DNA of 64,000 nt from Escherichia coli (GTDB lineage Bacteria > Pseudomonadota > Gammaproteobacteria > Enterobacterales > Enterobacteriaceae): the NCBI RefSeq assembly GCF_041886205.1, contig NZ_CP169029.1; one strand, 5' to 3'. The position numbers were made by a program, and so were the translations under genes. The notes below the pieces were generated by a model. The model worked only from the letters and a program-made list of their open reading frames with translations. It had not been told where the DNA came from and did no database searches. Below, piece after piece: positions 60,993 through 61,990 of the stretch. Position 1 is the stretch's first letter; each line of letters opens with the position of its first letter.

Positions 60993-61990
60993 CCCCTGAA
61001 TCCTGCTGGGATCTGGCTGTAGTCCACGTTGTCGTAACTGGCTTTGAAGTACGGGTCTTCGCGTTTTTCTGTGTACGTGCTGACGGACGGCGATAAGCGC
61101 AGGGAAAGCTCATCCCATTTTTCCCGCAGCTTCGACGGGCTGAGCACGTTACGGCACCAGAACGGATCGCGGCTGACGCGGCTGTACATCTCGCAGATTT
61201 GTTTGTGAGTACGACCATCCTGCACACACATCAGGCGAATTTCGTTTGCCCAGGCTGTCCAGTTCGGTTCTTTGGGACGAACCACCTCGCCGTCACATTC
61301 GGCAGCCTGCTCGTACAGGGCGATGATTTTTTTCCAGAGCCACTGTGCGCAGGTCAAATCATCCTGCGTCCCCCACTGGCGCTTTTTAGGGCTGAATACA
61401 ACCGCATCAGGATGGCGAGTTAAAAAATCCTGTTCAGCCGTCTGCGTGTCCGGTTGCGAAGAGTCCGGACGAGAAGGTTTTTTATCTGACGGATCATGTT
61501 TTGATTTTACTGACGGATCCCCGCCAGATTCTGACGGGTGAAAACCCGCTTTTTTGCCAGATTTCGACGCATCAAATTTTGACGGGTCAGATTTTGATGC
61601 GTCAGATTTTGACGGGTCAGATTTTGATGCGTCAGATTTTGACGGGTCAGATTTTGATGCGTCAGATTTTGACGGGTCAGAATCTGACAGTTGAGAAAAT
61701 GCCGCTGCCTGAAGCTTCGCAACGTTAAGCTGATAAACATTCGACGCATTGCGGTTACCCTGGCGACGCGCCTTACGCGTTAACCAGCCTTCTGCTTCCA
61801 GCCGTGCGATAGCCGTTCTGACGGTACTCATCCCCGCGCCAATCTGGCGTGCAATGGTTTCAATTGATGGCCAACACACACCTTCGTCATTACTGAAATC
61901 AGCCAGGCGGGCCATAATTGCCACGCTGGATAGCTTCATGCCTGACGCAGCGCAACCATCCCATACATAGCCGGTTAATTTAGTGCTCAT
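60989..61990 (-). CDS. Replication initiator (lambda O-like, N-terminal wHTH) with internal iteron-encoded peptide repeats
   Basis: 333 aa; N-terminal HTH; central SDPSKSDASK repeats encoded by 30-bp tandem repeats. Confidence 0.7.
   Translation of the reverse strand: MSTKLTGYVWDGCAASGMKLSSVAIMARLADFSNDEGVCWPSIETIARQIGAGMSTVRTAIARLEAEGWLTRKARRQGNRNASNVYQLNVAKLQAAAFSQLSDSDPSKSDASKSDPSKSDASKSDPSKSDASKSDPSKFDASKSGKKAGFHPSESGGDPSVKSKHDPSDKKPSRPDSSQPDTQTAEQDFLTRHPDAVVFSPKKRQWGTQDDLTCAQWLWKKIIALYEQAAECDGEVVRPKEPNWTAWANEIRLMCVQDGRTHKQICEMYSRVSRDPFWCRNVLSPSKLREKWDELSLRLSPSVSTYTEKREDPYFKASYDNVDYSQIPAGFRG
61561..61690. repeat. Iteron array (about 3.5 x 30 bp) inside the replication initiator gene; probable origin
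   Basis: gacgggtcagattttgatgcgtcagatttt repeated exactly at 61581, 61611 and 61641, with degenerate copies at both flanks. Confidence 0.75.

Follow-up and report, generated by a model that had tools for sequence, protein, structure and literature searches.

What a tandem repeat is doing inside the coding sequence of a prophage gene, and whether it matters as DNA or as peptide, is the question raised by a locus in Escherichia coli contig NZ_CP169029.1 (RefSeq assembly GCF_041886205.1), of which one stretch of 64,000 nucleotides, referred to here as the window, was analysed. In the early-right region of a lambdoid prophage, nine 15-bp units lie head to tail within the gene of an O-like replication initiator. 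These repeats are probably the iterons of the prophage replication origin, embedded, as in phage lambda, in the linker-coding part of their own initiator gene. An earlier note on this DNA had placed three exact 30-bp repeats with degenerate flanking copies at 61561-61690, inside an initiator open reading frame (ORF), and had compared the layout with that of lambda. All of this stood up to analysis: the noted coordinates fall within 3 bases of the limits found here, the exact copies and degenerate end units are present, the gene has a full-length match to an initiator family and a C-terminal domain that aligns with that of lambda O, and the array occupies the gene position of the lambda iterons, with the least stable stretch of the gene coming after it. 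The features on which the argument depends are as follows.

60989-61990, minus strand: O-like replication initiator gene, 1002 bp and 333 amino acids, the intact homologue of the truncated yfdO of the K-12 prophage CPS-53/KpLE1
61685-61990, minus strand: N-terminal winged-helix domain of the initiator, amino acids 1-102, modelled with helices and a beta wing (AlphaFold2 predicted local distance difference test, pLDDT, 70-88)
61558-61692: candidate iterons, 15-bp units reading GAC-NNN-TCAAAATCT on the gene strand and bearing GTCA-N5-TGAC dyads; the units start at 61558, 61573, 61588, 61603, 61618, 61633, 61648, 61663 and 61678, and the array ends at 61692
61588-61677: three exact 30-bp copies (cagattttgatgcgtcagattttgacgggt), which include 60 bp beyond the usual allele
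61525-61539: isolated extra unit (cagattctgacgggt), with an A/T run and a short G+C hairpin between it and the array
61472-61524: A+T-rich stretch on the promoter-distal side of the array, a candidate DNA-unwinding region
61486 and 61510: two CTGACGGATC half-site-like elements within the A+T-rich stretch, both conserved
61091-61378, minus strand: C-terminal helical domain of the initiator, approximately amino acids 205-300 (pLDDT 80-90)

Direct reading of the sequence gives the nine units without gaps, the plus-strand unit cagattttgacgggt alternating with cagattttgatgcgt and the units at both ends of the array being degenerate. Tandem Repeats Finder reports the same region (61558-61681) either as period 30 with 4.1 copies (95% matches, score 220) or as period 15 with 8.3 copies, and detects no other strong tandem repeat across the 64-kb window. 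Equally distinctive is the 12-bp core TCAAAATCTGAC, which, with at most one mismatch allowed, occurs seven times in the window and every time within the array, against an expectation of 0.31 from shuffled sequence. The array is translated as SDSDPSKSDASKSDPSKSDASKSDPSKSDASKSDPSKFDASKS, that is, as SDPSK/SDASK repeats of the minus-strand ORF, and occupies approximately nucleotides 299-433 of the gene, just past the region coding for the N-terminal domain. Within each unit the dyad arms enclose a central A4 tract (CGTCA-AAATC-TGACG), and the isolated extra unit beyond the array is kept in the SfIV, K-12, phiNP, Klebsiella and Yersinia alleles. A terminator-like hairpin followed by a T run (CGGGTGAAAACCCG; 61535-61555 on the plus strand, the hairpin at 61535-61548) was also seen antisense to the initiator gene, in the interval that separates the A+T-rich stretch from the array; it is kept in SfIV and K-12 and broken in phiNP and the Klebsiella allele, and it was dropped as a functional element because the latter two alleles do not keep it.

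The identity of the gene rests on several searches. The protein has a full-length match to PHROG 391 ('replication initiation O-like'; E 9.5e-134), carries a Pfam HTH_36 domain at amino acids 23-70 as its only Pfam match, and is encoded by a gene 98-99% identical to replication genes of phages SfII, SfIV and Kati. Phage_rep_O (PF04492) was not among the Pfam matches of the initiator, whereas lambda O, scanned comparably as a control, matches that family at E 5.7e-36. At the other end of the protein, BLASTP aligns amino acids 151-297 with amino acids 139-270 of lambda O (36% identity over 149 columns, E 7e-26), which identifies the two C-terminal domains as homologues. In the AlphaFold2 model, which was built from a shallow alignment of 10 sequences, the two folded domains are separated by a predicted disordered linker (amino acids 103-204, pLDDT below 50), and the C-terminal tail also has low confidence. 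Because of this predicted domain layout, the repeats and the A+T-rich stretch would be encoded in the linker between the two folded domains. The modelled winged-helix domain is presumed to be the repeat-binding domain; its best Foldseek matches are DNA-bound MarR-type winged-helix dimers, though weak ones (E ~6e-3), and a sequence search of solved structures returned only marginal MarR matches.

The gene is widespread, with at least 80% of its length found in 1,576 of 5,426 complete E. coli genomes, and K-12 retains an N-terminally truncated copy (yfdO, in CPS-53/KpLE1) beside yfdN. A search of protein databases with the N-terminal domain returned mostly fragments, and the relatives compared below were instead drawn from annotated phage records. 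Many database entries for the initiator are flagged as partial, being 100-175 amino acids long and ending in or just past the array, and short-read assemblies may often break at this point.

Phage lambda provides the closest comparison. The lambda O protein combines an N-terminal domain that binds iterons with a C-terminal domain that binds P. The lambda record annotates four iterons at 39034-39118, corresponding to nucleotides 349-433 of the O gene, so that in both systems the repeats lie inside the initiator gene at a similar distance from the start codon (~299-433 here). In both, moreover, dyad arms flank an A4 tract (TCCCTC-AAAAC-GAGGGA in lambda, CGTCA-AAATC-TGACG here), the C-terminal domains are homologous by alignment, the downstream gene overlaps the initiator stop codon by 4 bp (P over O in lambda), and the least stable, A+T-rich stretch is promoter-distal of the repeats. 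The least stable 40-mer of the gene is found at 61472-61511, beginning at gene nucleotide 480, with 70% A+T; that of the lambda O gene begins at nucleotide 437, immediately beyond iteron 4. Across the relatives, this 40-mer lies some 45 nucleotides past the array in the window and SfIV and directly past it in lambda, mEp460_4F5 and Min27, with a similar arrangement in EC958, and the A+T-rich stretch is conserved across alleles at the DNA level. The differences from lambda are equally clear, as the N-terminal domain belongs to Pfam HTH_36 and not to Phage_rep_O, the 15-bp units abut as a true tandem repeat without spacers whereas the lambda iterons measure 18-19 bp, five to nine units replace the four of lambda, and no P gene follows the initiator. 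Judged on sequence, the putative origin is thus of lambda type in every anatomical respect tested, while the initiator falls outside the lambda O family by its N-terminal domain.

Other known origins share part of this design. Theta plasmid iteron origins such as those of pSC101, R6K, RK2 and P1 combine a winged-helix Rep protein with direct repeats of 17-22 bp and an adjacent A+T-rich region, and the locus described here resembles them in its (predicted) winged-helix initiator, its direct repeats and its A+T-rich neighbour. In those plasmids, however, the iterons lie outside the rep gene and usually beside DnaA boxes, whereas the present repeats are translated and no DnaA box was found. A further comparison is with the lambda-type origins of the Shiga toxin (Stx) phages 933W and P27, which have six iterons instead of four and an O protein longer by 13 amino acids; strong binding is confined to four of the six, yet the weakly bound extras are still needed (PMC7466680). 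There, as here, a natural difference in iteron number lengthens the initiator linker, by 13 amino acids in the Stx phages and by 20 in the window. Those phages, however, carry a true lambda O and lambda iterons, whereas both the initiator and the repeat sequence differ here. The similarly named phiP27 (NC_003356) has an initiator related to the N-terminus of the window protein, and the P27 of the Stx study was rejected as experimental support for the phiP27 allele, as that phage has a true lambda-type O (PMC7466680).

Whether selection acts on the repeat as DNA or as peptide was addressed by counting identical codons against SfIV at residues conserved within each pair, with the repeat/A+T segment defined as amino acids 99-165. 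For five relatives the counts were as follows.

E. coli EC958 prophage: 97% identical codons in the segment, 43% in the N-terminal domain, 59% in the C-terminal domain
Citrobacter phiNP: 90% in the segment, 48% in the N-terminal domain, C-terminal domain not compared
Klebsiella ST101-KPC2phi6.3: 85% in the segment, 46% in the N-terminal domain, 51% in the C-terminal domain
Yersinia YeP1: 76% in the segment, 38% in the N-terminal domain, C-terminal domain not compared
phiP27: 73% in the segment, 40% in the N-terminal domain, C-terminal domain not compared

Codon identity is thus 73-97% in the segment against 38-59% in the flanking domains (Fisher p 3e-7 to 4e-3 for the five relatives). In total nucleotide identity the segment barely exceeds the N-terminal domain, and in amino-acid identity it is equal or lower, so it is not simply younger; rather, substitutions have moved off synonymous positions. 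Furthermore, phiP27 and Stx2_KH16-043 carry one copy of the motif (GACCCTTCAGAATCTGAC) in another reading frame, translated as LTLQNLT, in the part of the gene that holds the isolated unit, and mEp460_4F5 has six copies of a 23-bp unit at the equivalent place, a period not divisible by three, which therefore yields no peptide repeat. Among 74 IMG/VR loci with the same allele as the window, most point differences lie in the 3-bp spacer (CCG, GCA, CAG, ACG or ACA), changing the encoded residue to P, A, Q or T, and the 12-bp core is kept. A conserved peptide repeat with drifting synonymous sites was not seen; the pattern found is the opposite. As these comparisons show, the constraint on the array acts on the DNA and not on the encoded peptide, because synonymous positions are conserved, a motif copy occurs out of frame, and the arrays change together with the N-terminal domain.

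This last point emerges from the exchange of modules among relatives, which include phages of Klebsiella, Yersinia and Citrobacter. In phiNP and YeP1, the N-terminus, the repeats and the A+T-rich stretch are held in common with the window and the C-terminal domain is unrelated (Phg_2220_C in YeP1), the similarity to phiNP stopping at window position 61452. The converse is seen in mEp460_4F5, where only the C-terminal half is shared, similarity stops at 61488, the N-terminus is unrelated and the array is different. Related N-termini (60-87% identity) retain the core TCAAAATCTGA, with TCAAATATTGA in the EC958 allele, and distant HTH_36 alleles (SfV, Min27, Klebsiella ST13) carry 24-bp dyad units, such as GGGCAG-GAG-CTGCCC, at the equivalent position. 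The alignments therefore show the N-terminal domain, the repeats and the A+T-rich stretch to be inherited jointly as one module. This matches the pattern classically known from lambdoid phages, where the N-terminal domain of the initiator carries the specificity for the origin with it. Tandem Repeats Finder, run with the same settings as a control, fails on the four lambda iterons and is thus insensitive, so that alleles without a hit (Salmonella SI8, Vibrio PF430-3) are uninformative and not negative. Two circular E. coli 'plasmid' records that contain the module, CP085522.1 (41.5 kb) and NZ_CP081716.1 (37.7 kb), were considered as cases of it serving as sole replicon but were not used as evidence, being frameshift-ridden and without replicon typing; in both, the replication module stands alongside prophage genes, and the records are probably excised phage genomes assembled as plasmids.

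The earlier note had also expected the repeat number to vary, and this held in part: relatives range from four to nine units, but the number is not freely variable, as about nine in ten of them have five. The usual allele consists of five contiguous units in a gene of 942 bp (SfII, SfIV, the K-12 array, and phiNP with its five units), and this allele was found in 67 of 68 full-length E. coli rows among the matches listed. The 74 IMG/VR loci comprise 68 with five units, one with four, three with six and two with seven. E. coli AR_0162 reaches eight units through 15-bp steps of the GCA unit, and the window reaches nine, the highest number seen, through 30-bp steps; the two expansions are independent of each other. 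All length changes seen in the array are in frame, in steps of 15 or 30 bp. The four extra units of the window are, on this evidence, the product of a recent in-frame expansion in 30-bp steps, which lengthens the predicted disordered linker by 20 residues.

Taken as a working model, the anatomy suggests the following sequence of events. Dimers of the N-terminal winged-helix domain would bind the dyad 15-bp units (GTCA-N5-TGAC with the central A4 tract) and assemble into a nucleoprotein complex resembling the lambda 'O-some'. This complex would destabilise the adjacent A+T-rich stretch at 61472-61524, and the lambda-O-like C-terminal domain could then recruit the replicative helicase, so that replication would start at this site. 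With no phage helicase loader encoded nearby, the helicase would presumably be recruited through host DnaB-DnaC or another partner.

Several findings weigh against an origin at this site. The A+T-rich stretch is only moderately extreme, its 70% A+T standing at the 96th percentile of the 40-mers in the window, and in SfV and phiP27 the least stable stretch precedes the array. Neither a DnaA box (at most one mismatch) nor an integration host factor (IHF) consensus was found near the array, and GATC is not enriched there, the two sites present corresponding to background density. By its N-terminal domain the initiator stands outside the lambda O family, and no P-, DnaC- or DnaB-like ORF occurs at 57960-62000, a gap at the proposed helicase-loading step. 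In addition, a literature search turned up no account of an origin for SfII, SfIV or CPS-53, and the published description of the SfIV genome names no origin. Finally, the only protein experimentally shown to bind these repeats is a host factor, the LysR-type regulator SrsR (YgfI), at the truncated K-12 locus (PMC9181523).

The SrsR data require separate consideration. In genomic systematic evolution of ligands by exponential enrichment (SELEX), the highest SrsR peak of K-12 lies in the 'yfdO/yfdP spacer'; DNase I footprinting there protected 66 bp containing four 11-bp boxes (TCAaATTTTGa, TCAGATTTTGa twice and TCAGAgTcTGa) and required 10-40 uM protein, and deletion of srsR lowered yfdO mRNA 3.7- to 9.5-fold (PMC9181523). 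These K-12 boxes are a relic of the present array, with the same 15-bp spacing, inside an N-terminally truncated pseudogene annotated by RefSeq: positions 2084-2139 of the CPS-53 locus (numbering of the extracted locus) correspond to window 61572-61687, and the window holds eight boxes matching TCAGATTTTGC (61572, 61587-61662 and 61677). The consensus SrsR box was in effect derived from initiator-gene repeat units. In K-12 the N-terminus of the initiator has been lost, so that the boxes stand upstream of the remnant operon and were read as a promoter element, whereas in the window they lie inside an intact initiator gene. The SrsR study draws no link between the boxes and a replication origin (PMC9181523), and control by SrsR at fucAO, a single-box target, was not reproduced in a later study (PMC11011485).

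The array could be primarily an SrsR platform controlling downstream prophage genes, its likeness to iterons being incidental. That the four-unit K-12 relic is the top genomic SELEX peak and is footprinted, that srsR deletion lowers yfdO mRNA (PMC9181523), and that the boxes can be located both in the K-12 locus and, eightfold, in the window all speak for such a role. In intact prophages, however, the boxes lie within coding sequence, and a promoter scan of 61200-62100 found no sigma-70-like promoter; the micromolar footprint (PMC9181523) and the unreproduced fucAO regulation (PMC11011485) weaken the case further. Arrays that change with the N-terminal domain of the phage initiator, in relatives spanning phages of Klebsiella, Yersinia and Citrobacter, would not be predicted for a host factor, and we regard a primarily SrsR-directed array as quite improbable. 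Binding of SrsR is instead regarded as cross-recognition of the GTCA-N5-TGAC dyads or as a secondary function, because SrsR leaves unexplained both the change of arrays with the initiator domain and their occurrence in phages of other genera. A combined reading is more speculative than the origin itself and rather doubtful, though less so than an SrsR platform alone: the origin iterons might double as a high-affinity SrsR array, tying the firing of the origin, or transcription of the early operon, to the physiology of stationary phase or stress, with the copy number (nine here) tuning the coupling. Were this true, the strongest reported SrsR 'regulon' target of K-12 would be a fossil phage origin.

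Two further explanations dispense with either the origin or the DNA function. The array might consist of initiator-binding control sites, acting in titration, handcuffing, or autoregulation or pausing of early rightward transcription, with the true start of replication elsewhere. Such roles are known for plasmid iterons, nine copies in place of the usual five would suit titration, and in Stx phages only some of the iterons, four of six, are strongly bound (PMC7466680). The position of the array, its A+T-rich neighbour and its joint inheritance with the N-terminal domain nevertheless fit the layout of the lambda origin, and no second array or further copy of the core occurs anywhere in the 64-kb window, so that a start elsewhere appears improbable. 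Alternatively, the array might be no more than a low-complexity coding repeat, prone to slippage, and serve only to fix the length of a flexible Ser/Asp/Lys/Pro linker. The encoded peptide is indeed predicted to be disordered, all length changes are in frame and multiples of 15 bp, and three exact copies point to recent expansion and not to selection on each copy. Against this, the flanking folded domains conserve their synonymous sites far less well and their amino acids better, motif copies occur in another frame and arrays exist whose period is not a multiple of 3, and variation is concentrated in the 3-bp spacer, where it alters the residue among P, A, Q and T. A repeat devoid of DNA function is accordingly the hardest of these accounts to sustain and highly improbable. 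Iterons of a lambda-like origin thus remain the probable identity of the array.

On this reading, a probable origin is placed for a prophage family whose near-full-length copies occur in 1,576 of 5,426 complete E. coli genomes and to which the Shigella serotype-converting phages SfII and SfIV belong. The lambda design, with the origin in the initiator linker, would extend to initiators in which a lambda-O-like C-terminal domain is joined to another kind of DNA-binding domain, and the published top SrsR genomic SELEX site, described as a promoter spacer, would be reinterpreted as an iteron relic. The arrangement itself is ordinary and would not surprise a specialist; the link to SrsR and the absence of a helicase loader are its more interesting aspects, the latter because helicase loading would have to proceed from a lambda-O-like C-terminal domain that no P- or DnaC-type gene accompanies.

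The surrounding genes are arranged in the following order of transcription.

63240-63893, plus strand: divergent CI-like repressor
Then in order: Cro-like protein, YmfL/CII-like protein, two small ORFs, and the initiator
60498-60992, minus strand: YfdN-like gene with a PerC domain, its start overlapping the initiator stop by 4 bp
Beyond this PerC/YfdN-like gene, in order: LexA-like DNA-binding protein, RusA, KilA-N protein, and DUF968/HNH protein

The YfdN-like protein was considered as an analogue of P or a helicase loader and rejected, as it has no similarity to lambda P. The C-terminal domain of the initiator is a homologue of the P-binding domain of lambda O, yet no P-, DnaC- or DnaB-type gene accompanies it. 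A similar short tail (window 60989-61060) ends O-like initiators with quite different C-terminal domains, taking the forms ...VDYSQIPAGFRG in the window and SfV, ...VDYSLPENSGFRS in phiNP and the Klebsiella allele, ...TEIPPGFRG in EC958 and ...YQLPERRG in a Vibrio phage. Most alleles bearing the tail have no helicase or loader gene downstream, and phiP27, SI8 and Klebsiella ST13, which have a DnaC-like or primase/helicase gene downstream, lack the tail; the exceptions are YeP1, in which neither tail nor loader was seen, and the Vibrio phage, which has the tail and a 'DNA biosynthesis protein' downstream. The tail may serve as a short recruitment motif for a host factor.

At the opposite end of the initiator gene, two small ORFs overlap each other in different frames. 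A DUF4222 ORF of 59 amino acids (61980-62159, minus strand) shares 11 bp with the start of the initiator gene, and a 112-amino-acid ORF of PHROG 1170 (62000-62338, minus strand) overlaps the DUF4222 ORF in turn; both ORFs are annotated in relatives.

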